A stretch of DNA of 64,000 nt from an uncultured Candidatus Saccharibacteria bacterium. GTDB lineage: Bacteria; Patescibacteriota; Minisyncoccia; Phycocordibacterales; UBA5272. The DNA lies in the NCBI GenBank assembly GCA_964512315.1, contig CAZEIK010000002.1, positions 45,304 through 109,303 of the forward strand. Direction: 5' to 3'. A program made the position numbers and the translations under genes. This document shows, one piece after another, positions 13,143 through 31,232 of this stretch; the first letter of the stretch is position 1, and every line of letters begins with the position of its first letter. The notes beneath the pieces are model-generated. The model did no database searches, was not told the DNA's origin, and was given only the letters and a program-made list of their open reading frames with translations.

Positions 13143-13143
13143 T

Positions 13144-14208: not shown

Positions 14209-14213
14209 AAAAA

Positions 14214-15163: not shown

Positions 15164-15169
15164 ATATAA

Positions 15170-15307
15170 CTAATCTGCTGATAGTTTCTTGCGGCCCTTT
15201 TGTCTTCTAGCAGAAATAACCTTTTTTCCTGTAGCAGAGGCCATTCTAACCAGAAATCCGTGTGTTGTGTATCTCTTTTTGTTTTTTGGGTTATAAGTTA
15301 CTGACAT
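15170..15307 (-). CDS. rpmH: 50S ribosomal protein L34
   Basis: Not in the ORF track (under 60 aa). Minus-strand translation is [45 protein letters not shown], the L34 signature. Sits upstream of rnpA. Confidence 0.8.
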
Positions 15308-15386
15308 AGGGGGTATTCTATAACAATTAAAAGATTTTGACAAGGTACACTTTCTTCAAAATAAAGCGTATACTCTAACTCACGAT

Positions 15387-16724
15387 ATGGACTACGAACA
15401 GCTTTGGAATACGGTATTGTCTCAAATTGGTTTAGAAGTTTCTCGGGTTAACTTCAACACTTGGTTCAAAAATTCAAGAATGGTTGATTATAAAGACGGC
15501 GACGTAACAGTTGGTGTGCCCAATCAATTCATAAAAGACTGGTTGGAGCAAAAATACCATAAAGACATTTTAAGAATACTGCGATCTGTTCATGAGGGGG
15601 TTAGGTCTTTATCTTTTTCTGTTGTAAGATTTGACGTTCCTCCTAAAAAAACTCAAGTAATACAAACAAATAACGGCTCTTTACCTCTAGATAACCTTTA
15701 TATAAATAGAGAAGATGGGCTTAATCCTAAATACACGTTTGATAGTTATATTGTAGGGCCATTTAACGAAATAGCTTATGTTTCTGCGCAAGCAATAATA
15801 CAAAATCCAGGTCTTTCTTATAATCCTTTCTTTGTTTATGGTAATACAGGCCTAGGCAAAACACACCTTCTACAGGCTGTAGGTAATGCTGTTAAGAAAA
15901 AATACCCCGAAAAAAAGGTTTTTTATATCTCTTTGGAGCGTTTTTATATGGAGTATGTGAACGCCCTTAATCAAAGCCGTGTTCCAAATTTCAAAGAAAA
16001 ATATAGAAAATTTGATGTTTTTATAATGGACGACATACAATTCATAACAGGTAAAGAGAAAACTCAGGATGAATTGTTCCACCTATTCAATATAATGTAC
16101 GAAACCAATCGTCAGATCATCTTTTCTTCAGATGTTCACCCTAATTTTATTATTGGTTTGGAGGAGAGGCTGCGCTCTCGTTTTAATCAAGGTATGGTTG
16201 TTGATGTTGAAGCTCCAACATTTGAATCGCGTCTTGCTATCTTGCAAAAAAAGGCGAAAGATCATTCTGATAAACTATCTCCTGAGGTTTTGGAGTTTAT
16301 AGCTGAGAGCGTCCATGGAAACATTAGAGAGCTTGAAGGCATTCTAACCAATCTTATAACTCAATGTGAGATCAAAAAGACTGTTTTAACCCTTATTGAC
16401 GTTAAAAGTTATTTAAAAAATAACATAAAAGCTAAAAAATCTGTATCTATACCAGAAATAGTAAAGACTGTCGCTGATTATTATCATGTTAATGATTCGC
16501 TTATATATAACAAAACAAGAAGAAAAGATATTATCAAGCCTCGCCAAATAATAATGTATATATTAAGAGAGGAGTATGATATATCTTATCCGGTGATTGG
16601 GGATAAGTTGGGTGGAAGGGATCATACCACTGTTATTCACTCTTATGAAAAAATAAAAAGAGAGCTTGAAAAAGACCCTCATTTAGCAAAAGAGATTGAC
16701 GACATACGCTCTATTATTGTTTAG
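15387..16724 (+). CDS. dnaA: chromosomal replication initiator DnaA
   Basis: AAA+ Walker A GNTGLGKTHLLQAVGN. Box VII/VIII and C-terminal helix-turn-helix (IIMYILREE...IGDKLGGRDHTTVIH). Confidence 0.95.
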   Translation: MDYEQLWNTVLSQIGLEVSRVNFNTWFKNSRMVDYKDGDVTVGVPNQFIKDWLEQKYHKDILRILRSVHEGVRSLSFSVVRFDVPPKKTQVIQTNNGSLPLDNLYINREDGLNPKYTFDSYIVGPFNEIAYVSAQAIIQNPGLSYNPFFVYGNTGLGKTHLLQAVGNAVKKKYPEKKVFYISLERFYMEYVNALNQSRVPNFKEKYRKFDVFIMDDIQFITGKEKTQDELFHLFNIMYETNRQIIFSSDVHPNFIIGLEERLRSRFNQGMVVDVEAPTFESRLAILQKKAKDHSDKLSPEVLEFIAESVHGNIRELEGILTNLITQCEIKKTVLTLIDVKSYLKNNIKAKKSVSIPEIVKTVADYYHVNDSLIYNKTRRKDIIKPRQIIMYILREEYDISYPVIGDKLGGRDHTTVIHSYEKIKRELEKDPHLAKEIDDIRSIIV

Positions 16725-16946
16725 TATTTTTTGTGTGTAAGTTGTGTATAACTTATCAAAGTTTTACAGAATTTAATTTGTATTGTTTTATTGATGTTAT
16801 TTATTTATATCTTTTCTTTATGTTTTTTGTTTTAAAAACCAAGATAAGTATTGATTTATAAGGTTTTAAAAGTTTTAAACCTAATCAACATATATATCTT
16901 TAATGTGAATTTTGTTTTTACTTATTAAAAGATTATAATTAACTAC
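16725..16946. promoter_or_regulatory. candidate oriC/DNA-unwinding region in the dnaA-dnaN spacer
   Basis: 222-nt strongly AT-rich spacer. Degenerate DnaA boxes TGTGTGTAA (16733-16741), TGTGTATAA (16743-16751) and TTATCAAA (16753-16760) versus consensus TGTGGATAA/TTATCCACA, then AT tracts. Confidence 0.45.
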
Positions 16947-18050
16947 ATGAAGTTCACCTGCCAAGCAAAAGACTTAAAAGATAAAATACAAAACCTTGCC
17001 AGAATATCGCTTAAGACAGGGCTAGATCCTATATTTGAATGTATTTATTTAGAAAATGAAGATCATAACCTAACATTAAGATCGGCTAATACTGAGATAA
17101 TTGCTGAGCAGAATATGCCGGTTAAAGCTGAAATAAATGGGTTATGTCTTGTGAATGCAGCACTTTTATCAAAAGTTCTATCTAATATATCAAAAAGCTC
17201 AGACATAGTAACTTTTGAGAGGGTTGATAATGTTTTAGTTATACAAAACGAGAACAATAGAACAGAAATTGATCTCTACAACGAATCAATGTTCCCTAAA
17301 ATACAAAATGGCGGGGAGAAAATGTTCTCAATAAACAGGGTTAAGTTTTTAGATTTGATAAAAAGTGTAGCTTTTTGTGCCGCTACAACAGAAATAAAAC
17401 CAGAAATAGCTAGTATTTATTTATATAATAAAGATAACAACCTATACGCCGTAGCAACAGACTCATATAGACTATCTGAGAATTGTATACCTTTTGAAGA
17501 AGAGTCTCAGATAAGCTTATTAATACCTCAGAAAAATATTAATCAAATCTTAGCGATATTAGGAGATGAAGAGAGTGAAACAATAGACGTTATAAAACAT
17601 AATGAGCTTATATTATTTGAAACAAAAACAAGTTTTGTGTCAACAAGATTAACTAACGGATCTTTTCCAGACTATAAACAACTTTTCCCTAAAGAATTCT
17701 TATTTAATTTCTCCGTCAGAAAAGAAGTTCTACAAAATGCTTTAGAATTATCTTCGATTATTACAAATCAAACCCCTATTTGTTCTTTTGAGTATAATAA
17801 AGACAAACAGACTATTAAAATATCCTCAGAGGAAAAAGGTGTTGGTCAAATGAGCAAAGAGATAACAGTAAAGTCAGAAAATCTTGAAGATATAAAGGTT
17901 TTTTATAACAGCAACTACTTCCTAGAGGGGCTATCTAAATTAAATGGTGATAATGTAACCCTGTCGTACACCACAACAAACAGGCCTGTATTTATCAAAT
18001 CAGAACAAAATACTAATTTTACGTATCTTTTAATGCCCATAAATAGATAA
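16947..18050 (+). CDS. dnaN: DNA polymerase III beta sliding clamp
   Basis: 367 aa immediately after dnaA. Confidence 0.85.
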   Translation: MKFTCQAKDLKDKIQNLARISLKTGLDPIFECIYLENEDHNLTLRSANTEIIAEQNMPVKAEINGLCLVNAALLSKVLSNISKSSDIVTFERVDNVLVIQNENNRTEIDLYNESMFPKIQNGGEKMFSINRVKFLDLIKSVAFCAATTEIKPEIASIYLYNKDNNLYAVATDSYRLSENCIPFEEESQISLLIPQKNINQILAILGDEESETIDVIKHNELILFETKTSFVSTRLTNGSFPDYKQLFPKEFLFNFSVRKEVLQNALELSSIITNQTPICSFEYNKDKQTIKISSEEKGVGQMSKEITVKSENLEDIKVFYNSNYFLEGLSKLNGDNVTLSYTTTNRPVFIKSEQNTNFTYLLMPINR

Positions 18051-18271: not shown

Positions 18272-20414
18272 TAGTGGTTGCCTCTGTTGATGTGCTAAAG
18301 CCACCAGAATAGAAAGGGCAAGAGTTATTTTGCGCCCAAGCCTGAATTGGTGTATTCCATAAGTTATACTGAGGGTCGTTATAATTAGGAGATCCACCAC
18401 CAACACCAATATCTCCTAATATTGTATGAGCTGGGTTACCTTCCCCACACCAAATACCGCGTAATATAGGTAAAGTGTTTTCATTTGTAGGAGTTGGTGC
18501 GTCAAAATACGAAATAGGGGTGTTGTTTAAAGCAACACTCATAAACTTTTTCCAAATAGGAGCAACAACCATACCAGCAACCTTTTTATCTATTGGAGTA
18601 TTATCGTTATTTCCAGCCCACATTCCAACAGCAATATCTGGAGTGTAACCAATAACCCAAACATCCTTATAGTCGTTAGTTGTACCAGTTTTGGCAGCAA
18701 CAGGCCTGTCGGGGAAATAAAGCGCGCTGTTAGCCCCAAAAGCCGGTATTCTGGCGTTGTTATCAGTTAAAACATTACTTAGTGTGTCTGTGTATTCTTT
18801 TGGCACGACATCGATAGAATTCTGTGTGTATTTCTCCAAAACATTACCATTTAAATCTTTTACCTCTAGAACAAGAGCTGGTTGGTTGTACACGCCACTG
18901 TTAGCAAAAGTCGCATAAACATTAGTTAGTTCTAAAAGAGACACCTCTCCACCACCCAACACAAGAGATAAACCAAACCTAGAACTGTCAGTAAGGCTTG
19001 TAATTCCTAAGGTTTTTGCGAAGTTTAGAGCGTTTTGAACCCCGACTAAGTATAAAGTTTTTACCGCGGGGACATTGAGTGATTGTTGCAACGCCGACCT
19101 TATTGATATTGGTCCACGATATTTACCATCATAATTCACCGGCATATAACACTGCCTTTTATCCCCACCGTTCAAAGGATTGCCGTACGCATCACAAAGG
19201 GTACTAAACTGTGTCGGTAGGTCGAATAGTGTGGTGTCAGGAGTTAACCCTTTCATAAACGCTAACAGGTACACAATAGGCTTGAATGCTGAACCTGGCT
19301 GACGTAAGGCAGTCGCTATATTAAATTGCCCATCTATTTCTTTATCAAAATAATCACGAGACCCAACAAGAGACAATACTTGCCCAGTTTTTGAGTCTAT
19401 TGCAACCAAGGCAGCATTTCGAGCTTTATATTTCTGCTCATTTTCTAAAGCACCCTCTTTTACTATTTGTTCAGCGTTCTTTTGAAGATTCCAATCTATT
19501 GTGGTAATTACTTTTAGCCCACCATTTTCAACTACCTCTTCACCATACTTACTCTCAAGATAGTCTTTGACCATAAAAACAAAATGCAAAGCCTTGGCGT
19601 TATTGGTTTCTTGGGGCAAGAAGGCGACATTCTCGTTTTTGGCTTCAGAGTATTGAGTGTCGTCTATCATTTTAAGCTCAAACATTCTAGAAAGCACAAG
19701 GTTTTTTCTCTCGTCTAGGGCGGATTTATTTTTACCGTAAGGAGAATAGAATGACGGCGCCTGTGGCATTGCAGCAAGATAGGCTGCCTCAGCAAGAGTG
19801 ACATCTTTGGCCGGCTTACCAAAATAAGACTGAGAGGCCTCTTCTACCCCATAAATAGACCCCCCATAAGGAGATTCGTTCAAATACATAGTCAAAATGG
19901 TATCTTTGTCCAGTTGTGCGTCCAACTTAACAGCCAATATCCACTCTTTTACTTTTCTTATAATTGTTTTTTGCCTATCCAACAAAGCGTTTTTTACAAC
20001 TTGTTGTGTTATTGTTGACCCACCCTGTGAGTATCCGCCTGATGCAAGGTTGGCAAGCACTGCTCTCATTATTGATTGAGGTCGTATCCCGTAATGCTCG
20101 TAAAAATGAGAATCCTCAATAGCAACAGCGGCATTTTTAATATTTAGACTTATTTGATCAGACGGAACAACGGTACGTTTGATATTCTCGTGTATATTGT
20201 AGAGCACAACTTTACCAGTTCTGTCATAAATCTTGGTAGAATTGGCTATTTTACGATTCTCAAAGTCACTAAAATCAGGAAGTTTTATTGTGGCTATCCA
20301 TACAACAAAAAGCGCAGAGGTTATAAGGGTCAACCCAACCAAGGCGTAAAAAGACTCTTTCATCATATGTGAGACAAAACGAGACCTGCGATGATTGTGT
20401 TTCGGATGGTTCAT
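18258..20414 (-). CDS. class A penicillin-binding protein (bifunctional glycosyltransferase/transpeptidase, PBP1A-like)
   Basis: N-terminal TM. GT51 motif AIEDSHFYEHYGIRP. Transpeptidase SxxK-type region (GSAFKP) and KTGT motif. Confidence 0.9.
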   Translation of the reverse strand: MNHPKHNHRRSRFVSHMMKESFYALVGLTLITSALFVVWIATIKLPDFSDFENRKIANSTKIYDRTGKVVLYNIHENIKRTVVPSDQISLNIKNAAVAIEDSHFYEHYGIRPQSIMRAVLANLASGGYSQGGSTITQQVVKNALLDRQKTIIRKVKEWILAVKLDAQLDKDTILTMYLNESPYGGSIYGVEEASQSYFGKPAKDVTLAEAAYLAAMPQAPSFYSPYGKNKSALDERKNLVLSRMFELKMIDDTQYSEAKNENVAFLPQETNNAKALHFVFMVKDYLESKYGEEVVENGGLKVITTIDWNLQKNAEQIVKEGALENEQKYKARNAALVAIDSKTGQVLSLVGSRDYFDKEIDGQFNIATALRQPGSAFKPIVYLLAFMKGLTPDTTLFDLPTQFSTLCDAYGNPLNGGDKRQCYMPVNYDGKYRGPISIRSALQQSLNVPAVKTLYLVGVQNALNFAKTLGITSLTDSSRFGLSLVLGGGEVSLLELTNVYATFANSGVYNQPALVLEVKDLNGNVLEKYTQNSIDVVPKEYTDTLSNVLTDNNARIPAFGANSALYFPDRPVAAKTGTTNDYKDVWVIGYTPDIAVGMWAGNNDNTPIDKKVAGMVVAPIWKKFMSVALNNTPISYFDAPTPTNENTLPILRGIWCGEGNPAHTILGDIGVGGGSPNYNDPQYNLWNTPIQAWAQNNSCPFYSGGFSTSTEATTTIGF

Positions 20415-20434
20415 AGTTGTGATATAGTATTTAT

Positions 20435-21625
20435 ATGCCTAATACTAACACAGACGAAACCAAGATTAAACAGCTGTTGTCAAGAGCTGTGGAGGAGATT
20501 TTTGTAAAAGAAGAGATGGAAAAAGATCTCCTGTCTGGACGCGAGCTCAGAATAAAATTTGGAATAGACCCAACGGGCCCCAAAATACACCTAGGTCGCG
20601 CTATTCCAATAAGAAAGCTTCGCGAGTTTCAAAAACTAGGACACAAAATAGTTCTTATTATTGGTGACTTTACAGCACAGATAGGTGACGCTAGCGACAA
20701 GACAGAAAAGAGGCCAATGTTAACACGCGCCCAGATAGACGAGAATTTGAAAGACTATAAGAGTCAGATAGGTAAGATTTTGGATTTAGAGAAGGTTGAG
20801 TTTGTTTACAATAACGATTGGCTTTCAAAATTAACATTTCAAGATGTCACACAACTAGCGGAATGCTTCACTGTGCAGCAAATGTTAGCAAGGAGGAATT
20901 TTAAAGACAGATTCGATGCTGGTACAGAGATCTCTTTGCGTGAATTTTTATACCCACTAATGCAGGGATATGACAGCTATGCTGTGAAGTCAGATGTTGA
21001 GATTGGTGGCTACGATCAACTTTTTAACTTAAAAGCTGGTCGCGCTATACAAGAGTTCTTCGGCATGCCAAAGCAGCACATTATGAATCTCCAAATGCTA
21101 GAAGGAACAGACGGAAGAAAAATGTCTACTAGTTGGGGTAATGTTGTAACTGTAGTAGATGAGCCGAACGATATGTTTGGTAAGATTATGTCTTTGCGTG
21201 ATGAGCTTATAATTAAGTATTTCAATCTTTGTACTGACGCAGACGAGAACCAAATTAAAAAGTACGAAGAAGATTTAAAAAATGGAGTAAATCCTAGAGA
21301 TATAAAATTTATTTTAGCTGAGGAGATAGTTAAGATGTATCACAATGAGAAGGTGGCAGCCCAAGCCAAACAAAACTTTATTGAAGTATTCCAGAACAAG
21401 GGTCTGCCAGACGATATACCAGAAGTATATGCAGAAGAAAAAGAAATGTTTTCCGATGTTGCGTTAAGGTCTGGAACAGTGGAGAGTAAGAGTGAATGGA
21501 AGAGGCTTGTTGAAGAGGGTGCTGTTAGTTATGAGAGTGGCGAAGTGTTGTCTGATTACAAAGAGTTAGCCAAAAGCGCAACATTAAAAATAGGCAAAAA
21601 AAGATTTCTAAAAGTAAGAGCTTAA
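20435..21625 (+). CDS. tyrS: tyrosyl-tRNA synthetase (class I aaRS with C-terminal S4-like domain)
   Basis: HIGH-region variant GIDPTGPKIHLGRAI, KMSTS (KMSKS) motif and a C-terminal S4-like segment. TrpRS cannot be fully excluded. Confidence 0.7.
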   Translation: MPNTNTDETKIKQLLSRAVEEIFVKEEMEKDLLSGRELRIKFGIDPTGPKIHLGRAIPIRKLREFQKLGHKIVLIIGDFTAQIGDASDKTEKRPMLTRAQIDENLKDYKSQIGKILDLEKVEFVYNNDWLSKLTFQDVTQLAECFTVQQMLARRNFKDRFDAGTEISLREFLYPLMQGYDSYAVKSDVEIGGYDQLFNLKAGRAIQEFFGMPKQHIMNLQMLEGTDGRKMSTSWGNVVTVVDEPNDMFGKIMSLRDELIIKYFNLCTDADENQIKKYEEDLKNGVNPRDIKFILAEEIVKMYHNEKVAAQAKQNFIEVFQNKGLPDDIPEVYAEEKEMFSDVALRSGTVESKSEWKRLVEEGAVSYESGEVLSDYKELAKSATLKIGKKRFLKVRA

Positions 21626-21825
21626 TACCAATCTCTGGGGTCGTCGTGAGGGAATGCTATATCCAACTCGTCATCGTCATCACTTAATATAAAAACCTCC
21701 TCCTCTTCTAGCTCAACATATCCATCATCACCAAGAGCTGCATCTAAGGCATCCGGGTTAACTGAGTCTTCATTTACAGGTTTTTCCTCTTCTTCCATAT
21801 TTGTTTTTTGATTCTTGATAAGATA

Positions 21826-22317
21826 TCAAATTGTTTTTAAATATGCAAGGGCTGCTAGTCCTGACGCCACCGCATCGTATTCATCATCTAGCCCAGTCTT
21901 AGCAACATGCTTACTAATTAGCTTAACCATTTTAATAACCTGATCCTTTTTTGCATTACCAACACCAGTCACAGCTAGCTTTATTTTCTGTGGGGTCATC
22001 TCTACGATTTTTATTCCGCGCCTAACACAAATCAACTTAACAGCCCCTTTAATCTCAGCAACATTAATAACACTCTTTGCGTTGTCGTGCATAAACACAG
22101 ACTCGACACATAATATTTCTGGGTGATATTCATCTAGAACTTTTTCAAACTCACTTATAACTTGCATAAGACGCGCCTCAAAAGTTAAAGTTTTGGATGT
22201 CTGAAAGCAGTCAGAGAATAACACGGAGTCTTTATAATTCTCTCTAACAACAACTGCGACACCAAAACGATCGAACCCTGGATCAACAGCAACCACAACA
22301 GTTTTATTTTGCTGCAT
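21826..22317 (-). CDS. ruvC: Holliday junction resolvase RuvC
   Basis: N-terminal VVAVDPGFDRFGVAVV. 163 aa. Overlaps the ruvB stop. Confidence 0.85.
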   Translation of the reverse strand: MQQNKTVVVAVDPGFDRFGVAVVVRENYKDSVLFSDCFQTSKTLTFEARLMQVISEFEKVLDEYHPEILCVESVFMHDNAKSVINVAEIKGAVKLICVRRGIKIVEMTPQKIKLAVTGVGNAKKDQVIKMVKLISKHVAKTGLDDEYDAVASGLAALAYLKTI

Positions 22318-23287
22318 AGTCTTTACCTTTCTGTGTTAGTTGTCTTCCGCGTGTGGTTTTTTCTATTAGACCCATTTGTAAGAGATACGGCTCTAATACA
22401 TCTTCTAGCGTACTCTCTTCCTCTGAGAGTGCCGCCGCAAGAGTAGAGAGTCCAACCGGGCCGCCCGAGAATTTATCTAATATAGTTTTTAAATACTCTC
22501 TTTCGTTGTGACCCAAACCTTCCTCATCAATTTCTAAAAGGTCTAAAGATTTTTTTACTGTAAAAACATCAAGAGGCAACTCATGAACCTCAGCATAATC
22601 ACGAGCACGCTTGAGGTAGAAGTTGGCAATACGTGGGGTGAATCTCGAGCGCTTAGCTATTTCGAGGGCCGCCTCGTGAGATATTTTTGCTCCAAGCTTC
22701 TCTGAGCTCTTCTCCACAATTTGCGCCAACTCTTCTAAGGTGTAGAATTGTAAACGGTATACACCACCTGAGAATCTTGATCGCAGTGGTGACGAGAGTA
22801 GCGACACACGTGTTGTGGCACCAACAAGAGTAAATGGCGGTATGTCTAATTGTATACTTCTTGCGGCTGGACCTTTGCCGATAATAATATCAAGAACACC
22901 TGATTCCATTGCAGGATATAGCACCTCCTCAATCATTTTGTTAAGGCGGTGTATCTCGTCGATGAACAGAACATCATGCGGTTGCAAGTTGGTTAATATA
23001 GCAGCCAAGTCACCAACTTTTGTAAGAGTGGGTCCAGATGTTACTTTTATATTTGTATTAAGTGTTCTTGCTACTATGTGAGCGAGAGTTGTTTTACCTA
23101 GTCCTGGTGGACCATATAACAAAATATGCTCAGGGGGCGTTCCGCGTGAGAGGGCTGCGCGTAAGAGTACGTCTATATTTTTTTTAATCTGGGTCTGACC
23201 AATATAATGTTCAAAAGTTGTCGGGCGAAGGCTCGAATCTAGATGTCTACTCTCCTCATTTTTAACTTCTTCTTGACCACTTGACAT
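22304..23287 (-). CDS. ruvB: Holliday junction branch-migration ATPase RuvB
   Basis: LLYGPPGLGKTTLAHIVA Walker A, FIDEIHRL Walker B, arginine finger region. Confidence 0.95.
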   Translation of the reverse strand: MSSGQEEVKNEESRHLDSSLRPTTFEHYIGQTQIKKNIDVLLRAALSRGTPPEHILLYGPPGLGKTTLAHIVARTLNTNIKVTSGPTLTKVGDLAAILTNLQPHDVLFIDEIHRLNKMIEEVLYPAMESGVLDIIIGKGPAARSIQLDIPPFTLVGATTRVSLLSSPLRSRFSGGVYRLQFYTLEELAQIVEKSSEKLGAKISHEAALEIAKRSRFTPRIANFYLKRARDYAEVHELPLDVFTVKKSLDLLEIDEEGLGHNEREYLKTILDKFSGGPVGLSTLAAALSEEESTLEDVLEPYLLQMGLIEKTTRGRQLTQKGKDYAAK

Positions 23288-23478
23288 AGAATTTAATTAT
23301 GTTATAATTGTCCACAGTTCAATCTTTTAAAAAGCTCGTCAATCTTTAAGCAATCGGGTTCGCCCATACTTCTATTACGAAGGACGTTTTGGTTCTAAAG
23401 CATTTGCTTTACTACTGCGGCTATCCTTATGTAGGAAATATTCTTCACCAAGGGGTTGTTTAAAGATTAATGAGCTTT

Positions 23479-25173
23479 TTATTTTTCGTACAGATCAACA
23501 ACTGTTCCCAACTCCTCTAGCGAGGTGACCCCGTCTAGTACCTTCATTATACCATCTTCTCTCATTGAGGGTATCATTTGTTTTGCCGCTACAGCTTTTA
23601 TCTCTCTTTCACCAGCACCACCAACAGCAGCAGTCTCTATTTCTCCTGTCATTTGTATTGCTTCGTATATACCAGTTCTACCTTTGTAACCATTGTTGCA
23701 CTTATCACAACCCCCATCCTTGGCTACAAATATTTGATATATTTTTTGTGGTGGATGAGCTACGTCTTTACCTTCGGAGACCATGTTACCAATTACATCA
23801 GTTATTAATTTTGACTCTTCTGCTGTTGCGTCTCTTCTTTCTTTACAATTTACACACAACTTCCTACACAATCTTTGTGCCATTACAAGAGTAAGCGACG
23901 AGGCTAATGTCTTAGCATCAACCCCGAGGTCTATCATGCGAGGTATTGATCCTGCTGCCGAGTTGGTGTGTAGGGTAGAGAGTACTATGTGACCAGTTAG
24001 TGCCGCGCTCGCTGCTACCTTTGCTGTGTCTTCATCACGGATCTCACCCACCATAATTACATCTGGGTCTTGGCGTAATGCAGCACGCAGTCCGAGTAGA
24101 AAAGTGTAATCTTTTTTCTGGTCGACTTGTGTCTGGGTTATTCCGTCTAAGTGATACTCGATAGGGTCTTCGATAGTGATTATTTTTTTCTCAGATGTGT
24201 AGACTTTACGAAGACAGGCATACAAAGTTGTAGACTTACCTGATCCAGTTGGTCCAGTAGTTAAGACCATACCATAAGGCTTCTTTATTGCGCGGTCGAG
24301 TACACCTAACACCTTTTCATTCATACCTAACTGGTCAAATCCAACATTAGCAGCCTTAGGGTCCAAGATTCTCATTACATAATTTTCACCATAATTGCCA
24401 GGCACAACCGACACACGCACTTCTATTTTGTCTCCGCCCCAATCAATTTCAAATCTTCCATCTTGCGCAGACTTTTGTATAGAGAGCTTCATCCCGGCGA
24501 GCAGTTTAAGACGACTATTAAGTAAATTAAAAGTCTTTTCATCAGTGAAGAATATATCTTGTAGGGCGCCATCTATACGATATCTAACTTTCACAGTGCC
24601 ATCTTCTGGTTCTATATGTATATCGCTCGCGGTGAAGTGTATGGCACCAACTAGTGACATCTCAATTATTTTCGAAACTCTCTCTCTGTCACTATTCATA
24701 ATAACTTGTTCCAACTTATCCCTGAATGTCTGCAGGTTGCTAACATCCTCCAGCAACTCCCTTAAGTGAGACTCGCTTAGGTTGACCAACCCCCTTTCTA
24801 CAACCGTCCCAGCATCCAGGTCAGCGTAACGCGCCCACACTTTTTTAACTGACGTATCAGATGCAATATATATTATCGGTTTATCACCTTTGTTAGAAAG
24901 CTTCGCCAAGTACTCAACAACATCGTCACGAGTCGGGTCTGATATTGCTATGTGAAGCTGTCTACCAACCATTTTAAATGGAGCAAAGGAGTATTTTTGT
25001 GCATCTTCTAAGGGGAGTGCTGCTAGCGCATCCATTTCAGGAGACTTAATACGAAGGTCTATGTAAGGGAGACCTGTTTGGGCAGCCAGGAACTCCGCCT
25101 CTTTTTCTTCATCTTCCGCAGCCAATTTGTTCAGGCTTGTTTTGATTTTTAGCTCTGCAATATCATCGATCAT
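23479..25173 (-). CDS. pilB: type II secretion/type IV pilus assembly ATPase (GspE/PilB family)
   Basis: Walker A LTTGPTGSGKSTTLYACL, Asp/His boxes and a C-terminal tetracysteine (CxxC...CxxC). 564 aa. Confidence 0.85.
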   Translation of the reverse strand: MIDDIAELKIKTSLNKLAAEDEEKEAEFLAAQTGLPYIDLRIKSPEMDALAALPLEDAQKYSFAPFKMVGRQLHIAISDPTRDDVVEYLAKLSNKGDKPIIYIASDTSVKKVWARYADLDAGTVVERGLVNLSESHLRELLEDVSNLQTFRDKLEQVIMNSDRERVSKIIEMSLVGAIHFTASDIHIEPEDGTVKVRYRIDGALQDIFFTDEKTFNLLNSRLKLLAGMKLSIQKSAQDGRFEIDWGGDKIEVRVSVVPGNYGENYVMRILDPKAANVGFDQLGMNEKVLGVLDRAIKKPYGMVLTTGPTGSGKSTTLYACLRKVYTSEKKIITIEDPIEYHLDGITQTQVDQKKDYTFLLGLRAALRQDPDVIMVGEIRDEDTAKVAASAALTGHIVLSTLHTNSAAGSIPRMIDLGVDAKTLASSLTLVMAQRLCRKLCVNCKERRDATAEESKLITDVIGNMVSEGKDVAHPPQKIYQIFVAKDGGCDKCNNGYKGRTGIYEAIQMTGEIETAAVGGAGEREIKAVAAKQMIPSMREDGIMKVLDGVTSLEELGTVVDLYEK

Positions 25174-25221
25174 GCTTATATTATAACCAATAAAATCTAT
25201 ATAAATATAATCTTTTACACC

Positions 25222-25249
25222 TTGACAAAAGTATTATTTAGTGTATACT
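25222..25249 (+). promoter_or_regulatory. near-consensus sigma70-type promoter (TTGACA-N16-TATACT) upstream of the lipoprotein gene
   Basis: TTGACA at 25222-25227 and TATACT at 25244-25249 with a 16-nt spacer. RBS AGGAGA precedes the ATG at 25316. Confidence 0.4.
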
Positions 25250-25315
25250 AGTGTTAGTAATCTGATCATTCATTTTGCGGTGAGATAATATCAACAACCC
25301 GCCAAGGAGACGCGA

Positions 25316-25624
25316 ATGCGTTCAATTTTCATTATCGCAGGACTCGCTTCGCTCGCCTTATCAGGCTGTGTTACGATTGTTGCGCGAGAACAACCGGCGC
25401 AACAGGCGGTCTATTACCGCCAAGCGCCAGCACCTGTTGTAAATGGCCTTCCTCAAGGTTGTCAGCGCACCATTTACGGTACGCACTGCAATCAGGCGGA
25501 TGGTTACATCCTCCAGGCGCCGCAAGTGCCAGGCCGCACGGCTCAGCCGGGTGCCGGTCAGCCGACTTGCCCCTACGGTGGTACGCTACGCACAGTCAAC
25601 GGACAACTCTTGTGTGTCCGCTGA
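25316..25624 (+). CDS. small Cys-containing lipoprotein (high-GC island gene 1)
   Basis: Signal peptide with lipobox LALSGC, AGGAGA RBS, roughly 62% GC codon usage with strongly GC-biased third positions. Confidence 0.55.
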   Translation: MRSIFIIAGLASLALSGCVTIVAREQPAQQAVYYRQAPAPVVNGLPQGCQRTIYGTHCNQADGYILQAPQVPGRTAQPGAGQPTCPYGGTLRTVNGQLLCVR

Positions 25625-25706
25625 CACCAACTTTCACTTTTAGGGTACCGGGACTGTGATCACTCCCAAGCGCTCGCTTATCCTTCCCCGGACGAGCTGC
25701 TGATAT

Positions 25707-25741
25707 TCCCTGAACGGACCCCTGTGGTCCGTTTTTCTTTT
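25707..25741 (+). terminator. rho-independent terminator
   Basis: Stem ACGGACC-CCTGT-GGTCCGT followed by TTTTTCTTTTT. Confidence 0.5.
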
Positions 25742-25776
25742 TATATAAAGTAATAAAAAATATTAAATGTATAGTC

Positions 25777-25804
25777 TTGACAAAAGATTAAAAACATGTA
25801 TACT
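25777..25804 (+). promoter_or_regulatory. second copy of the near-consensus promoter (TTGACA-N16-TATACT)
   Basis: TTGACA at 25777-25782 and TATACT at 25799-25804. Shares CTTGACAAAAG.ATT...GTATACT with the promoter at 25222. Confidence 0.4.
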
Positions 25805-25905
25805 TATACACAGAGGTTTTGAGAAATTATCTTGAATAAATTAGGGTAATTTACAAAACTTTACTTTCACAACCAACGCGGCAGCCCGCCGCAAAAGGAA
25901 AATGT

Positions 25906-26862
25906 ATGGCAGCAGCTGCCCCCCGCCCCGTCGCCCCTCGAGTTCGTCCCGCTGCGCATCGCCGCAGTTGGACGAAGTGGCTCAAGTATGCAGGATACAC
26001 CATCTTCGCTCTGCTTGCAGCTGCCTTTTTACTCTGGCTCGCGGCATTGATGTTCTCACCGGTTATCAGCTGGTGGAACACGTCGTCGTTCAGCGCATGG
26101 TCTTCGGATCGTGCGTTGGCGTCAGCCCGCGACAACTTGAGTGCAAATCGCAAAGTCGCGAACAACAGCGGTCGCATCAAGGCGATCGACAGCAAAACCC
26201 CTGATCTCGTCGACTCCGCCAACACGGCAGGCGAGCGAGCTGAAGGAAAAACCTTAACTCGCCAGCTGGCGAGAGAGCGTGCCGCTACGGTTCGAGATCA
26301 GGCGGCAGAGATGAAAAACTCAGCCGCGGTATCTCGTGCCGATGCAGCCGAGATAGCCCTCTCTGCTTGTGACGACGGTGATGATGCTTGCATTGAGCGA
26401 GCCCTCAAGCTTCTGCGCCCACCGTTCATGGTGAAGCAGGAAATGGATGAGCTCGCGGCTGCGAAAAAAGCAGCCGAAGATGCGAAAGCTGCCCAAAAGG
26501 TGGCTGAGGATGCTCTTGCGAAAGAGAAAGCCAAGCCAGCAAAGGTGGTTCGTATTCCTGGTCCTACGGTGTACTTGCCGCAACCAGTGGCCACGCCACC
26601 CTCAGCAGCTCTGGCAATCGTCCCGTCTCGCCCAACTACTACACCAGCAGCACCGTCCAGCGGAGCTGTGCCCTGCACATTTAGCCGGCACGGTGTCGCG
26701 ATCGAGACGTTCACCGTCTCGTCTGGAGAGGAATGCAAGAGAGCGACGTTCGAAAAGAACGAAGCCTTCATCTTCCGTGAGTGCGTCCAAAAGTGGGGGC
26801 AAGACCACTGCATCAAGCAGCGAGATATTCGCAAGCAGGCGCAAGGGCAAAACTCTTGGTAG
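25906..26862 (+). CDS. Ala-rich single-pass membrane protein (high-GC island gene 2)
   Basis: 318 aa. TM helix YAGYTIFALLAAAFLLWLAALMF, then charged Ala-rich helical region, a Pro-rich segment (PQPVATPPSAALAIVPSRPTTTPAAPSS) and a Cys-containing C-terminal domain. GC-rich. Confidence 0.5.
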   Translation: MAAAAPRPVAPRVRPAAHRRSWTKWLKYAGYTIFALLAAAFLLWLAALMFSPVISWWNTSSFSAWSSDRALASARDNLSANRKVANNSGRIKAIDSKTPDLVDSANTAGERAEGKTLTRQLARERAATVRDQAAEMKNSAAVSRADAAEIALSACDDGDDACIERALKLLRPPFMVKQEMDELAAAKKAAEDAKAAQKVAEDALAKEKAKPAKVVRIPGPTVYLPQPVATPPSAALAIVPSRPTTTPAAPSSGAVPCTFSRHGVAIETFTVSSGEECKRATFEKNEAFIFRECVQKWGQDHCIKQRDIRKQAQGQNSW

Positions 26863-26879
26863 GAATTTCCCTACCGCAA

Positions 26880-26912
26880 AGGTCCGTCGTAACGACGGCC
26901 TTTTTTTATTTT
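26880..26912 (+). terminator. rho-independent terminator
   Basis: GGTCCGTCG-TAA-CGACGGCC hairpin followed by TTTTTTTATTTT. Confidence 0.5.
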
Positions 26913-26973
26913 GACAACAAAACTTTTTGTTGTTAGTGTTTAGTAGTCTTTAACTATACAAGGAGCAAGAGAC

Positions 26974-27444
26974 GTGACGTTCTTTAAAACAATTTTTATG
27001 TTGGCAAGCTTTCTGCTTGCCGGTGTGGCTGCCTCTCAGGTCTGTGAGTTGAGTAAGGGTTGCAATGACCCTAACAGCATCGGTGCCAGGGTTACCTTGC
27101 CCGGTGTTGGTGTTAAGGCGCCGCCACCAGCAAACACAGCTTCTGTCACGCAGAATATTGGTGTAGGTGTTGACGTCAAAATCATCCCCGAGATCACCTC
27201 CGTGACGGTGGACAGCTCTCGTTTGCGAGGTATCTGCATCTCGTGGGAAAATGGCGAGCCGTGTCCGGCAGCAAAGGCAATTGACTCACCGGTCAGGGAG
27301 GTAAAAGCTTCGGAACAAAAACCGAAACAACTCAAACCCTCAAAACAGGCAAGTCGTTCAAAAGTTGCAACGGTGACTATTCCGGCTTCCGAATATGAAA
27401 AACTCGTCAAGAGTTGCAGCAAACCAGCAGCACAAAAACCTTAA
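26974..27444 (+). CDS. secreted Cys-motif protein, paralogue A (high-GC island gene 3)
   Basis: GTG start 8 nt after AGGAG. Signal peptide FMLASFLLAGVAAS. Motifs C-x-L-S-K-G-C-N-D-P-N and ISWENGEPC are shared with the next gene. Confidence 0.5.
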   Translation: MTFFKTIFMLASFLLAGVAASQVCELSKGCNDPNSIGARVTLPGVGVKAPPPANTASVTQNIGVGVDVKIIPEITSVTVDSSRLRGICISWENGEPCPAAKAIDSPVREVKASEQKPKQLKPSKQASRSKVATVTIPASEYEKLVKSCSKPAAQKP

Positions 27445-27459
27445 TAGGAGAGAAGTGAG

Positions 27460-27879
27460 ATGAGAAAGCATTTGTTGTCGTTATGGCTCTTTCTTTCGGT
27501 GTTGGCAATGCCAATCTTTGCAGAAGAAAGGGAAGCGGGACTGTGTCAGGGTTGCAAAGACCCTAACGCAATCTCAACAACCATAAAACTGCCCACACCT
27601 AGTGTGCAGTCGCCACCACCAGTTACATTGCCGCCCGTGTATCAAGACGTGTATCAGCCGGTTGTGCAGCGTATACACCCTCAGATCGTTTCTGTGCAGG
27701 TGGCGGAGACGGTTGGTGTTGTGTGTGTTAATTGGCAGAACGTGCCTTGTTCTTGTGCTGTTGCTCCGGCACCAGACATGCGCAGGTGCGCCATCCATAA
27801 AGGGCGTCCAGATTTAGGGTTTTTCCCAGGTTTGTTTTCCCAAAATGGCTGCGAGGAAGAGCGGGCACGAAGAAAATGA
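27460..27879 (+). CDS. secreted Cys-motif protein, paralogue B (high-GC island gene 4)
   Basis: Signal peptide LLSLWLFLSVLAMPIFA. Shares C-QGC-KDPN-I...LP...V..PPP...I.SV.V...C..W.N.PC with the preceding gene. Confidence 0.5.
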   Translation: MRKHLLSLWLFLSVLAMPIFAEEREAGLCQGCKDPNAISTTIKLPTPSVQSPPPVTLPPVYQDVYQPVVQRIHPQIVSVQVAETVGVVCVNWQNVPCSCAVAPAPDMRRCAIHKGRPDLGFFPGLFSQNGCEEERARRK

Positions 27880-27905
27880 TGCTTGACCGGCGGTTTTCCG
27901 CCAAG

Positions 27906-27936
27906 ACCCAGACGCTGTTTGTCTGGGTTTTTTGTT
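27906..27936 (+). terminator. rho-independent terminator closing the GC-rich island
   Basis: CCCAGAC-GCTGTTT-GTCTGGG followed by TTTTTTGTTT. Confidence 0.5.
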
Positions 27937-27983
27937 TATAAAAAATATTTACATTACTTATATTTGTTATACTTCATACTGTA

Positions 27984-28661
27984 ATGCAAGAAATTCAACC
28001 CAAACAACCAACAACACCAGATCAAAACTTTAAAGAAAGTATATCTGGTATTTGGGACGATGGTTCAAGGGACGCAAGAGAAAGCTCTAAAACAAAAAGC
28101 TTCCTTGGCGCTGCGGCATTGGGTATTTTGGCTGCAATATCTCCAAACAAACAAGCTGATGCTCATAATTTAGATACACAGTCCCAGAACACAACAACTA
28201 TAAGGGAGGGGGTAAGTGAAATGGTTGACGGATATAAAATATTTAATAATCTGTCAGATGCAGAAACAAAATATAATAACGCAGAAAAGGATATAAGATT
28301 TGAAGGTAAAAAGGGGTTCGTTTTCTATACACCAGCTGTGACAGGTGAGAATAGTGTTTATTTTGTTAAAAAAAGTAAACAGCCAGGGGTTCGTTTTGAA
28401 ATAGGCAAGCATGGCAAGAGGGTTGCCCTCATGCCGGATGAAAAATTGATGGATTTGCCACAAGACACTATAGTTCAAGCTGATATTGTTGGTGGCGTTG
28501 GTATTGTAATACTAGAAAAAGGTGCAGAAATGGTTGTTAAGAAATTTATAAGAGATGGCAAAGAGGTTTGGGATGTGGAGGAGGTCGCGGCCTGTAACAA
28601 TAAGATATACAAAATAAAGAAAATGTGCCCACCTTGCCCAACAGGACAACAGTGTAACTAA
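27984..28661 (+). CDS. hypothetical protein (host-like AT-rich composition)
   Basis: 225 aa. Weak N-proximal hydrophobic segment. C-terminal KKMCPPCPTGQQCN. Confidence 0.45.
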   Translation: MQEIQPKQPTTPDQNFKESISGIWDDGSRDARESSKTKSFLGAAALGILAAISPNKQADAHNLDTQSQNTTTIREGVSEMVDGYKIFNNLSDAETKYNNAEKDIRFEGKKGFVFYTPAVTGENSVYFVKKSKQPGVRFEIGKHGKRVALMPDEKLMDLPQDTIVQADIVGGVGIVILEKGAEMVVKKFIRDGKEVWDVEEVAACNNKIYKIKKMCPPCPTGQQCN

Positions 28662-28670
28662 CTTGACATC

Positions 28671-31232
28671 TTGTCAAATATAGATTATAATATGAAAACC
28701 CTAAAAAGTGTAATAAATAAAGGAAATATGAAAAAAATATTATTTAGTTTAATTGGTTTCTCGATGCTTGTTTCTGGGTTTTCTTTTGTAGTGTTTGCCC
28801 AGGATTGTTCTGATTGTGGATATAACTACACCGACGAATATAATGGACCTGGTTATAATTACGGATACAACTATACCGACGAGTATCAAGGGCCAGGGTA
28901 TAATTATAATTTTAATAATTCGTGGGATACAAATACGCAAATAAATTGTACTTCTTGTGGTTTGAATTACAACTATACCGATGAATATCAAGGACCAGGT
29001 GGTTACGGATATAATTTTACAGACAGTTACCCTGCACCAACAACACCAACTAATACTGGGGGGATATATGTTGGTGACTGTAGTTATACTAACGATTGCT
29101 ACACACCACAGACTACAACATATGTACCGACATATACGAACACTACTACATATGTTCCTACTTATACCAATACATATGTTCCGGTATATACAAACGGTAG
29201 TACATATTATGGTACTTATTACACCCAACCTACTTACACCAATACTTATAATCCTGTATACACGACATGTCCTTCGAATGCTTACTGTCCACCAACAACA
29301 ACGCCAGCTCCTGTATACCGCGTTCCAACCAACTCATATCCACCTTCTACAGTAACAACACCTAGCAATAATTCTAGCTATTGGAATTATAACTACAACA
29401 GTACGACCAACACTAACACAACAACTAATACTAATAATAGTGTTACATACGGTCCAGCTTACACTTATACAAATAACACTTGCGCAGGAACAAATAACTG
29501 TAATACAACAGTTAACAACACAACTAACACAACAAATACAACAGGAAGCAATAATGTAAATTATTATTATGGTAACACCACAAACCCAACGCCTGTATGT
29601 ACCAATGGTGCGACCAATTATCCAGGATGTACAATATGTCCAACAGGTCTTGTTTACAGTAATGGTTATTGTATAACTAACATTACTACTAATAACTGTC
29701 CTACTAATTACTATTGGAATGGAACAAGTTGTGTACCACAAACTAGAACATGTCCGAATGGAACAGTGGTGAGTATATGGGATGTTTGTCCAAATCAAAC
29801 ACAAACATGTTGGAATGGAACAGTTATACCAGTATCGTCAGTATGTCCTTCTCAATACAAAACATGTCCAAACGGAACAGTGGTACTAATAAGCCAGCAA
29901 TGTTACAAGACATGTTCTAATGGAACAACGGTACCTGACACACAAGTGTGTTACAGAGTGTGTCCAAATGGGCAATCTATACCGGAGACACAATATTGTC
30001 CATCGTATAACAATTATCCAACAGTAGACATTAACGCTAACCCGAGCGTGATAAGCCGTGGAGGTAGCACAACATTAACTTGGACAAGTCAGAACGCTTC
30101 ATACTGTACTGCATCTAATGGCTGGTCAGGAAGTGTTAACCTGTCAGGATCAACACAGAGAGTGAATGTCTTAGATGCTACAACTTATTCTATTAGATGT
30201 TGTAACTCTCAGAATCAATGTGCAACAGACAGCACAACAGTGAATGTTACTCAGCCATTACCAACATCACATCGCGTGGTAACAACATCAGCAACAGGCA
30301 TAACAAATACTAGTGCTCGTTGTAATGGTGTTGGAATTATTTCAAACGGAGTTGTATCTAACGGATGGTTCGAGTACGGTGAGACCACATCGCTAGGCAA
30401 AGTAACTAACAGTGCCTCAATCGGCAATCAACCATCTTCACCTTTCTCTAACACTATTAATAACTTAAAACCAAATACTACATATTATTGTAGAGCGGTA
30501 ATGAGTAATGCTAATGGTACATATAGAGGTGAGATAGTCTCGTTCAAGACAACTGGTTCAGTTATTAACTATGTGCCAGTAACGCCAACAAAAACTCCAA
30601 ACAAAACAGTCGTTGTTTGTACTGACGAAACAGGAACAAAAGAGACTTTAAAAGAAGGAGAGAAGTTGATGACTATAACTTTAGACAAAAGATCAGGTAA
30701 CACAACACCGGGATCTACGGTTGATTATCGTGTGCATTATCTGAACACAAGTAAGATCAAGTTAAGTAATGCAACGGTCAAAGTTGTAATACCTAGCGAG
30801 ATGGAGTTCGTATCTAGTAATCGTGGTATGTATGATGCAGACACAAGAACTGTAACAGCAGACCTAGGCACTGTGGGTGCTGGATCCTCAGATGACTTGA
30901 TCGTCAGAGTAAAAGTTAAAGATAATGCCGAGACTAACAAGTCAGCAGTAATGAGTAGCTATATTTCATACGACGCATTAGACCAAAAAGGCCAAACAAT
31001 TCGTGATGAGAACACTTCTTATGTAATCAGCACAATAACCAAAGCTGAGCAGAATAATAATGTTTCAAATACAGACAATAATAATTCTGCACAAAAATCA
31101 ACACAAACAGATAGATCGTATTTGCCTAATACAGTTCTAGAGTGGCTAGCAATAATCGCATTAATATTCGTTCTGATTGTCTTAGGTAAGGCAATCTGGA
31201 CAGGATTAAAAGGCGAGGAGCACAGTCACTAG
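28671..31232 (+). CDS. large repetitive Cys/Asn/Thr/Tyr-rich cell-surface protein with FN3-like and DUF11-like domains and a C-terminal membrane anchor
   Basis: Signal or TM at the N-terminus. Tandem NYTDEYQGPG repeats, TYVPTYTNT repeats and at least 5 C-P-N-G-T-V-V...C repeats. WFEYGETTSLG...TTYYCRA (fibronectin-III-like) and DYRVHYLNTS...TVKVVIP (DUF11-like). C-terminal hydrophobic helix LAIIALIFVLIVLG. Confidence 0.7.
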   Translation: MSNIDYNMKTLKSVINKGNMKKILFSLIGFSMLVSGFSFVVFAQDCSDCGYNYTDEYNGPGYNYGYNYTDEYQGPGYNYNFNNSWDTNTQINCTSCGLNYNYTDEYQGPGGYGYNFTDSYPAPTTPTNTGGIYVGDCSYTNDCYTPQTTTYVPTYTNTTTYVPTYTNTYVPVYTNGSTYYGTYYTQPTYTNTYNPVYTTCPSNAYCPPTTTPAPVYRVPTNSYPPSTVTTPSNNSSYWNYNYNSTTNTNTTTNTNNSVTYGPAYTYTNNTCAGTNNCNTTVNNTTNTTNTTGSNNVNYYYGNTTNPTPVCTNGATNYPGCTICPTGLVYSNGYCITNITTNNCPTNYYWNGTSCVPQTRTCPNGTVVSIWDVCPNQTQTCWNGTVIPVSSVCPSQYKTCPNGTVVLISQQCYKTCSNGTTVPDTQVCYRVCPNGQSIPETQYCPSYNNYPTVDINANPSVISRGGSTTLTWTSQNASYCTASNGWSGSVNLSGSTQRVNVLDATTYSIRCCNSQNQCATDSTTVNVTQPLPTSHRVVTTSATGITNTSARCNGVGIISNGVVSNGWFEYGETTSLGKVTNSASIGNQPSSPFSNTINNLKPNTTYYCRAVMSNANGTYRGEIVSFKTTGSVINYVPVTPTKTPNKTVVVCTDETGTKETLKEGEKLMTITLDKRSGNTTPGSTVDYRVHYLNTSKIKLSNATVKVVIPSEMEFVSSNRGMYDADTRTVTADLGTVGAGSSDDLIVRVKVKDNAETNKSAVMSSYISYDALDQKGQTIRDENTSYVISTITKAEQNNNVSNTDNNNSAQKSTQTDRSYLPNTVLEWLAIIALIFVLIVLGKAIWTGLKGEEHSH

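Follow-up and report, generated by a model that had tools for sequence, protein, structure and literature searches.

A GC-rich cluster of envelope-protein genes beside pilB in Candidatus Saccharibacteria: probably an old, replaceable island whose base composition may be kept by selection on nucleic-acid structure

Why does an AT-rich, reduced bacterial genome keep beside its pilB gene a short block of GC-rich genes that all code for exported proteins? The question is raised by a stretch of 64,000 nucleotides from an uncultured Candidatus Saccharibacteria bacterium (contig CAZEIK010000002.1 of assembly GCA_964512315.1, positions 45,304 to 109,303 of the forward strand), called the window below, in which the block occupies positions 25270-27940 between pilB and o5, a gene for a further exported protein. 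An earlier sequence-only reading of this DNA had described the block as an island of about 62% GC with four open reading frames (ORFs), and had weighed a recent transfer and a chimeric contig as explanations for it. Our analysis leads to a different picture. We regard it as probable, with modest confidence, that the block is a native, long-standing and replaceable cell-envelope gene cluster in a fixed slot, and that its GC content is kept high by selection on nucleic-acid structure.

The compositional shift itself is real and lies where it had been placed, but it is smaller than described. The block has 52.2% GC compared with 39.3% for the rest of the 64 kb and is the most GC-rich 2.7-kb stretch within it; the local maximum is 59% in 300-nt windows and no coding sequence (CDS) exceeds 58%, so that the figure of 62% does not stand. 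The four genes are as follows.

25316..25624, plus strand: ORF1, a 102-aa lipoprotein with an LSGC lipobox, five Cys residues and the conserved motif GC.RT.YG.HC.QADGY, GC 0.58
25906..26862, plus strand: ORF2, a 318-aa bitopic membrane protein with 19.5% Ala, GC 0.58
26974..27444, plus strand: ORF3, a 156-aa secreted Cys protein with a signal peptide and a GTG start
27460..27879, plus strand: ORF4, a 139-aa secreted Cys protein with a signal peptide, a paralogue of ORF3

The GC contents of these CDSs are 0.579, 0.581, 0.499 and 0.510 for ORF1 to ORF4, and their GC contents at third codon positions (GC3) are 0.52, 0.60, 0.48 and 0.49, whereas the host average is 0.357±0.05 over 58 genes (z from 2.4 to 4.8). 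GC3 is therefore not uniform across the region, but the strong third-position bias that had been claimed is in fact a nearly even use of the two base classes. Between the genes of the block the DNA is AT-rich, with 30-39% GC, as had been noted. In the genes all three codon positions are enriched in G and C. Roughly half of the excess stems from amino-acid composition, with Ala at 14%, Pro at 8%, Arg at 6% and Cys at 3% and with Lys, Asn, Ile and Tyr being scarce, and the other half from codon choice that is spread over all G- and C-ending codons. From host to island, for example, ATA falls from 56% to 9% while ATC rises from 11% to 59% and ACG from 6% to 45%; among Arg codons the share of AGA drops from 41% to 9% while that of CGC grows from 14% to 36%. 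In addition, CGG makes up only 4% of the Arg codons of the island and GGT 56% of its Gly codons. That the four ORFs are coding follows from dN/dS values of 0.19-0.47 against orthologues, and these genes are under purifying selection. Their insertions and deletions are in frame, and the Cys residues, the lipobox, the signal peptides and the transmembrane segment are kept across lineages, as is a start at the position of the GTG of ORF3, where the orthologues have ATG. The two secreted proteins share 34% identity over 92 aa (E 3e-14), and the description of the products as a lipoprotein, an Ala-rich single-pass protein and two paralogous secreted Cys proteins is thereby borne out.

Does the block belong to this genome, and since when? 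A Logan contig from SRR11567528 is 100% identical to the window over positions 19776-29264 and spans both junctions, although it was possibly built from the same reads. Stronger evidence comes from other lineages and samples. Searching with the island proteins leads to lineages that we label L003-L009; L010, L014 and L106; L011 and L012; L091-L096; L097 and L098; L099-L101; and L102-L105, and a pattern scan of metagenomes added one contig of the L014 species. The slot, with pilB on one side and the gene of a giant surface protein (o6) on the other, recurs with the same junctions in 11 related lineages from other samples, within the order dnaN, a penicillin-binding protein (PBP) gene, tyrS, ruvCB, pilB, block, (o5), o6, tsaE and polA. 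The block is thus a native part of the genome. It is integrated, built for expression and not a chimera, the view that the sequence-only reading had preferred, and the adjacency to pilB and to a host gene that it had described is also correct. In all 11 of the tabulated lineages the island CDSs have a GC content of 0.52-0.55 and a GC3 of 0.52-0.61, compared with a GC3 of 0.26-0.43 for the flanking pilB and o6, and this composition stays constant while PilB identity to the window falls to 74%. No empty site, in which pilB would be directly followed by o5 or o6, was found among the relatives recovered from the collections searched; all 11 lineages carry the block, and none of the relatives found has the gene at 27984 directly after pilB. 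There is no tRNA gene within 7 kb of the block, no flanking direct repeat of any length and no integrase or other mobility gene at the block, whose neighbours are pilB and the exported-protein gene. Searches of plasmids and phages (blastn) and of viral contigs revealed no similarity to the block, and no homologue of its proteins occurs outside the slot among 5.8 billion indexed proteins (word-indexed search) and 1.8 billion representatives (exhaustive HMMER search). Neither were the island proteins found at pilB loci of more distant Patescibacteria, nor was a description of the locus found in the literature. A recent transfer can therefore be rejected, because every relative found on a shared backbone has the block in the same slot and with the same GC, and the searches gave neither mobility genes nor homologues elsewhere.

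If the slot is old, its contents are not fixed. Among the relatives we distinguish at least six versions of the gene content.

Version A (the window, L003-9 and L014): lipoprotein, long ORF2, ORF3 and ORF4
Version B (L099): lipoprotein, a distantly related 276-aa ORF2-like protein and a 326-aa secreted Cys protein
Version C (L091 and L094): lipoprotein, a 132-141-aa transmembrane protein and a 306-354-aa secreted protein
Version D (L011 and L012): as version C, plus an extra secreted protein
Version E (L097): a further combination
Version F (L102): a further combination

All versions comprise a lipoprotein, a bitopic coiled-coil protein and at least one secreted Cys protein, with differences in family membership and length, which suggests that the cassette genes are equivalent in role; the ORF1 family is the most widespread of the four. 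Several observations speak for exchange. The first gene is nearly identical in L014 and L099 while the downstream genes differ, and the third genes of L091 and L094 are 83% identical in their C-terminal halves and unrelated in their N-terminal halves. Between the window and L003, dS is 3.8 for tyrS, 2.0 for ruvC and 1.1 for ruvB, compared with 0.41 for pilB, 0.19-0.69 for the island and 0.08 for o5, which suggests that the locus was exchanged more recently than the backbone diverged. Lineages share the slot and its regulatory scaffold but have swapped and mosaic coding cassettes. We infer that the cassettes move by homologous recombination through the conserved spacers and flanks, and the locus is best read as a replacement-type surface-protein island.

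What, then, keeps such exchanged genes GC-rich? A first indication comes from folding. When each CDS was compared with synonymous-codon shuffles that leave protein, codon usage and GC unchanged, the island genes folded more stably than their shuffles, with z of -5.1 for ORF2, -2.6 for ORF3, -2.4 for ORF1 and -1.75 for ORF4. ORF2 is the most self-complementary CDS of the island, with a folding energy of -394 kcal/mol compared with -352±8 kcal/mol for its shuffles, none of 60 of which was as stable. Nine orthologues and other cassette genes from six lineages gave z from -2.0 to -7.1, so that the 13 tests together range from -1.75 to -7.1. Host genes range from +1.3 to -1.9, with the exception of the L11 gene at -2.5, and the moderately GC-rich host genes dcd and tmk reach only -0.9 and -0.2. 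Compositional heterogeneity along the genes was considered as a source of the signal and rejected, because the signal survives shuffling within blocks of 25 codons (z from -2.0 to -4.9 for the island, compared with -0.9 for ruvB). Shuffles that preserve dinucleotides gave z of -3.35 and -6.8.

A second indication comes from the substitutions. Polarised by three-taxon parsimony, some 100 changes at synonymous third positions of ORF2 to ORF4 comprise 61 from G or C to A or T (S to W) and 42 in the opposite direction (W to S), which corresponds to an equilibrium GC3 of about 0.46 and rejects a host-like decay towards 0.32 (binomial p=0.006). In a simple model of two-state decay, one substitution per site per lineage would leave less than about 16% of the excess present at the start. 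Since GC3 is constant even where the synonymous sites of the backbone are saturated, a decaying relic is hard to reconcile with the data, and the high GC appears to be maintained. Translational selection does not appear to be the cause, because the L11 and L19 genes have ordinary GC3 and all G- and C-ending codons are shifted. As judged from the sequences, the likely cause is that selection favours transcripts which are extensively base-paired, persist for long and are highly expressed, while a requirement for hairpins at the DNA level might instead be responsible.

The organization of the block for transcription is consistent with a selection acting on transcripts. The genes form three transcription units on the plus strand, ORF1, ORF2 and ORF3-ORF4, each with its own promoter and terminator, and contain the following elements, including structures in the leaders and in a 3' untranslated region (UTR).

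25222..25249, plus strand: P1, promoter of ORF1, TTGACA-16-TATACT, 11 of 12 consensus positions
25278..25303, plus strand: hairpin in the ORF1 leader, GCGG-TGAGATAATATCAACAAC-CCGC, directly 5' of the Shine-Dalgarno (SD) site
25625..25746, plus strand: ORF1 3' UTR, about 100 nt, GC-rich, an outer stem around two hairpins, of which one has a CCUUCCCC loop, with the terminator behind them
25712-25734, plus strand: intrinsic terminator of ORF1
25777..25804, plus strand: P2, promoter of ORF2, TTGACA-16-TATACT with a TG before the -10 element, 11 of 12 consensus positions, core invariant in eight lineages
25816..25859, plus strand: AT-rich hairpin of about 45 nt in the ORF2 leader, 6 nt from the predicted transcription start
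about 26884..26906, plus strand: intrinsic terminator of ORF2
26911..26939, plus strand: P3, promoter of ORF3-ORF4, TTGACA-17-TAGTGT, weaker than P1 and P2, conserved in relatives
27903..27931, plus strand: intrinsic terminator of ORF3-ORF4, at the right-hand edge of the GC-rich block

Near-consensus sigma70 promoters had been reported for the island, which holds for P1 and P2, while P3 is weaker yet conserved; an intrinsic terminator ends each of the three units, in line with the earlier reading, with ORF3 and ORF4 sharing one. These promoters, leaders and terminators, which lie in the AT-rich spacers, are kept across lineages while the CDSs diverge. The divergent spacer between pilB and ORF1 that contains P1 is strongly conserved, the conserved spacer between ORF1 and ORF2 consists of the terminator, P2 and the leader hairpin, and P3 heads different and unrelated cassette genes in version A and version E. 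The hairpin of the ORF1 leader stands before ORF1 in all lineages, with the consensus GCGG-TGAGATAATATCAA(C/A)AA-(C/T)C(C/T)GC, and may be a site of translational control; the same hairpin is also reused upstream of the second gene in L091, L094, L011 and L012. Of the ORF2 leader, about 95 nt long, positions 25810-25862, which begin at the predicted transcription start, are near-invariant in eight lineages in spite of very diverged CDSs; its hairpin has a small number of compensatory changes, and the window contains it only once. In the ORF1 3' UTR, 92.6% of the cells are paired and eight pairs have compensatory changes, compared with 3.0±1.4 in shuffles and 0-1 in slid controls. A covariance model of this structure finds one match per locus in eight lineages and no others, and the structure is absent from Rfam; it may be a 3'-UTR-derived small RNA or a stabiliser of the mRNA. 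Rfam searches gave no match at the gathering thresholds and, at E values up to 10, only sub-threshold chance matches. Selection on the transcripts is suggested by these elements when they are added to the excess folding of the CDSs: the promoters are at or near consensus, ORF2 has a hairpin close to the start of its leader, the 3' UTR of ORF1 is structured and the terminators are strong.

As for the products, ORF2 begins with an Arg-rich N-terminus and one transmembrane segment (about residues 28-57), followed by the invariant motif WWNTSSFS.WSSDR. Next comes the stalk, which is long, helical, rich in Ala, Lys and Glu and contains a C-x6-C pair; a Pro-rich linker of about 45 residues then leads to a C-terminal domain with four Cys residues. 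Residues 255-312 of this protein, a small beta-beta-alpha-alpha domain, are the only part modelled with moderate confidence. A surface or host-contact role of the island proteins, as the sequence-only reading had suggested, is made plausible by their export signals and by the giant surface protein encoded nearby, and we hold with moderate confidence that the proteins would form a surface assembly for contact with a host bacterium or with further external agents, phages for example. This reading follows from the architecture of an anchor, a helical stalk, a Pro-rich spacer and a Cys-containing head together with a lipoprotein and small secreted Cys partners, from the location beside pilB and a giant wall-associated protein, and from the turnover of the cassettes. 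Other assignments found no support. A type IV pilus component is not indicated, because Pfam and NCBIfam give no match and a G/FTLIE-type motif is missing from the N-termini, which carry an ordinary signal peptide or a lipobox. A component of a type IV secretion system (T4SS) finds no family match in Pfam or NCBIfam either, and the T4SS genes of the window lie at 2.9-14.2 kb, beyond dnaA, dnaN and others, so that the link of the island to the T4SS is only loose. Anti-phage defence and phage proteins are not supported by any match in PADLOC or PHROGs.

Taken together, we propose that in one clade of Candidatus Saccharibacteria (TM7) the slot between pilB and the giant wall-anchored surface protein would hold a cluster whose products are a small lipoprotein, two secreted Cys paralogues and a coiled-coil stalk that is anchored in the membrane and carries a disulfide-bonded head on a proline-rich linker. 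Expression would proceed from three units, in each of which a strong sigma-70-type promoter and a tight terminator are combined with structure in the leader or the 3' UTR, and the cassettes would be exchanged by homologous recombination through the conserved spacers and flanks. Selection would favour base-paired, durable and abundant mRNAs, with high GC as the means or a by-product, and the proteins would assemble at the surface for host-bacterium contact, which would also explain their diversification. Several results weigh against this proposal. The antisense strand folds with about the same z as the sense strand, which does not favour a cause at the RNA level over one at the DNA level. A specific conserved RNA architecture in the ORF2 CDS is not supported, because only 25-47% of the changed pairs stay canonical, about as many as expected by chance; as the foldedness is retained while the pairs are not conserved, what is kept is an overall self-complementarity and not one architecture. 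The substitution polarisation rests on three-taxon parsimony and about 100 changes, which show a net excess of 61:42 towards A and T, and an equilibrium at 0.55 is only marginally compatible with them (p=0.06). GC at the first and second codon positions (GC1, GC2) and amino-acid composition resemble those of a GC-rich genome, leaving room for an old foreign origin. Homology gives no function, as profile searches of Pfam, NCBIfam, PHROGs and PADLOC and sequence-profile searches of the PDB were all without a match, in agreement with the earlier statement that the four ORFs carry no assignable motif. Foldseek finds no fold in the PDB that matches the ORF2 model, and the AlphaFold2 models, built from shallow alignments, are poor (pLDDT 54 for ORF2 and 48 for ORF4).

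A bolder form of the structural argument, which we think unlikely though deserving of mention, is that the selected trait is the nucleic acid itself, the surface-protein genes being kept GC-rich and hyper-self-complementary for the sake of extremely base-paired transcripts. Such transcripts might be long-lived stored mRNAs for a host-free stage or might have a second, non-coding RNA role; alternatively, single-stranded DNA might be involved in uptake or exchange beside pilB. The conserved promoters, leaders and terminators would then double as a set of recombination handles for swapping cassettes. If this were true, the block would be a gene-scale cellular analogue of the ordered RNA structure of some viruses.

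The ancient transfer of the block into the ancestor of the clade from a GC-rich donor, such as the actinobacterial host of an epibiont, would make it a slowly ameliorating relic in which nothing maintains GC. We consider this a minority possibility. GC is raised at all codon positions, with Ala, Pro and Arg enriched and Lys, Asn, Ile and Tyr depleted, and GC3 lies below the expectation based on GC1, as in partial amelioration if known correlations are applied; the net loss of G and C at synonymous sites fits such a history, and cultivated Saccharibacteria live on high-GC Actinobacteria. However, the searches of 5.8 billion and 1.8 billion proteins reveal no homologue in any GC-rich organism or outside the slot, GC3 is the same where the synonymous sites of the backbone are saturated and where less than about 16% of the excess would be expected after one substitution per site per lineage, and the substitution spectrum rejects host-like decay at p=0.006. 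Neither does a relic explain why the synonymous sites are self-complementary in every cassette, and the island frequencies of CGG (4% of Arg) and GGT (56% of Gly) are unlike actinobacterial codon usage.

Exchange of cassettes could also raise GC without any function of GC itself, by GC-biased gene conversion at a recombination hotspot, an explanation that we judge to be rather improbable. The mosaic dS, the intragenic mosaics and the replacement of cassettes between close lineages would suit frequent recombination, and G- and C-ending codons are raised evenly. In bacteria, however, recombining genes are reported to gain only a few points of GC, far below the 20 points of GC3 seen here. Moreover, pilB and o5/o6 have host-like GC3 although they share the mosaic and their dS between the window and L003/L005 is low, the edges of the block follow transcription units, and the arrangement of synonymous codons for pairing is not predicted. 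Still less probable is that the GC-rich segments are genes for structured non-coding RNAs with the ORFs as by-products. The very negative folding z-scores, the structured UTR elements, the flat GC across codon positions and long antisense ORFs would suit such genes, but the dN/dS values of 0.19-0.47 with in-frame indels, the conserved cysteines, lipobox, signal peptides and transmembrane segment, the absence of an Rfam match and the unconserved pairs of the ORF2 CDS would not. An assembly chimera or contaminating high-GC DNA, suggested only by the abrupt change of composition, can practically be dismissed, since an identical contig, though possibly of the same reads, spans both junctions and the same junctions, AT-rich promoters and gene order, with host-like and conserved spacers, recur in many samples and lineages.

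The surroundings of the block deserve a short description. The nearest genomes are those of uncultured Candidatus Saccharibacteria, with PilB identities of 84%, 76% and 75%. The window runs from the T4SS cluster through yidC, dnaA and dnaN, a class-A PBP gene, tyrS (our label for a class-I aminoacyl-tRNA synthetase gene, tRNA-synt_1b), ruvC, ruvB and pilB to the GC-rich block, and then through o5 and o6 to tsaE and polA, so that yidC, dnaA, dnaN, the PBP gene, tyrS and ruvCB lie in the 11 kb between the T4SS genes and the block.

2.9-14.2 kb: monoderm-type T4SS cluster, which includes PrgI-like, VirB4-like and pilin-VanY genes
right of the GC-rich block: o5, an exported 225-aa protein
28671-31232: o6, an 853-aa surface protein, DUF11/CLIPPER

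Within the T4SS cluster, positions 12291-13142 encode a T4SS pilin domain fused to a VanY-type D-Ala-D-Ala carboxypeptidase domain. The C-terminus of o6 resembles a sortase signal, with LPNTV, a hydrophobic stretch and a basic tail. The first 290-300 residues or so of its orthologues are unalignable between lineages and the remainder is 63-79% identical; the variable zone therefore reaches into the N-terminus of o6, where GC is host-like. An AT-rich trough of 30-34% GC at positions 13000-18000, around yidC, dnaA and dnaN, is presumably the replication origin region, and the block lies about 10 kb from dnaA. A mild elevation, with GC of 0.46-0.49 and GC3 of 0.42-0.49, is seen at positions 59832-62210, where dcd-like, dut and tmk are genes of nucleotide salvage and an ORF of 120 aa without a Pfam match lies between dut and tmk (61150-61512); it may reflect an older acquisition. 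In L008, pilB is broken into ORFs of 358 aa and 218 aa (positions 2850-4591); this is a frameshift or a pseudogene, or else an error in the assembly of the contig, whose coverage is about 3x. Finally, the short second gene of sister lineages ends in ...GC A_AAA_AAG CCG TAG (L091, 9095-9256; the same site in L093, L094, L011 and L012). The phase of this slippery heptamer is that of a canonical dnaX-type -1 site; an SD-like AAGGAGGTGGAGG lies upstream in L091, a long stem GCGCCTGAG...CTCAGGCGC begins 5-6 nt after the heptamer, and the -1 frame continues for 51-67 codons up to a conserved terminal C-x(10-17)-C motif like that of the C-terminus of P0035. It looks like a programmed -1 frameshift that would give a short and a long isoform. 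The heptamer has no counterpart in the window, where ORF2 has the long form in one frame.

What is the wider implication of such a locus? Bacteria of the candidate phyla radiation, Saccharibacteria included, are obligate epibionts, and their recognition of and attachment to hosts is little understood beyond type IV pili. The locus offers a compact and fast-diversifying set of orphan envelope proteins at a fixed site by pilB, and these proteins are candidate determinants of host specificity. A GC anomaly that stays constant over deep divergence, together with self-complementarity at synonymous sites, also provides a natural case in which amelioration, biased gene conversion and selection on nucleic-acid structure can be separated, and it cautions against taking atypical GC for a reliable mark of recent transfer.

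Among known systems, the block is most readily compared with replacement flexible genomic islands, which published accounts describe as holding the same position in all strains with different genes for exposed structures, as here, where the position is the same in all relatives and the flanks are conserved (PMC4033161; for the Haloquadratum cell-wall island, PMC4535781). Exposed envelope genes that differ or are highly diverged, signs of recombination and an atypical composition are further features in common with the islands so described. The present island differs in its size of about 2.7 kb with three to four genes, which encode proteins rather than a glycosylation machinery, and in its conserved internal scaffold of promoters, leaders and terminators and its abnormally self-complementary CDSs. 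Its GC also lies above that of the genome, while replacement flexible islands usually have a lower GC than the genome. With the horizontally acquired and ameliorating island of the Lawrence-Ochman model the block shares deviant GC and codon usage and orphan genes; it differs from such an island in having no integrase, tRNA target, direct repeats or donor homologues, in being present in every relative found, and in a substitution pattern that is not host-like decay. Highly expressed surface genes of the S-layer type have strong promoters and stabilising 5' UTR hairpins, and the near-consensus promoters, the stem-loop near the predicted 5' end of ORF2, the strong terminators and the exported products are similar here. 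In contrast to those genes, the island has no homology to any S-layer or surface-protein family, and its excess structure and raised GC extend over whole CDSs. The helical Ala/Lys/Glu-rich region, the Pro-rich linker of about 45 residues and the small terminal domain of ORF2 are reminiscent of Gram-positive fibrillar surface proteins, in which a coiled-coil stalk is combined with a Pro-rich segment that spans the wall; ORF2 has an N-terminal transmembrane anchor instead of a C-terminal LPXTG and no sequence or fold match to them. By analogy only, some RNA viruses have genome-scale ordered RNA structure, and the excess of folding energy over shuffles with no single conserved architecture is alike, unlike the setting, which here is a bacterial chromosome, the extent of only 2.7 kb and the equality of both strands. 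What distinguishes this island is its persistent GC richness in an AT-rich, reduced genome, the excess self-complementarity of its CDSs and its conserved internal scaffold.

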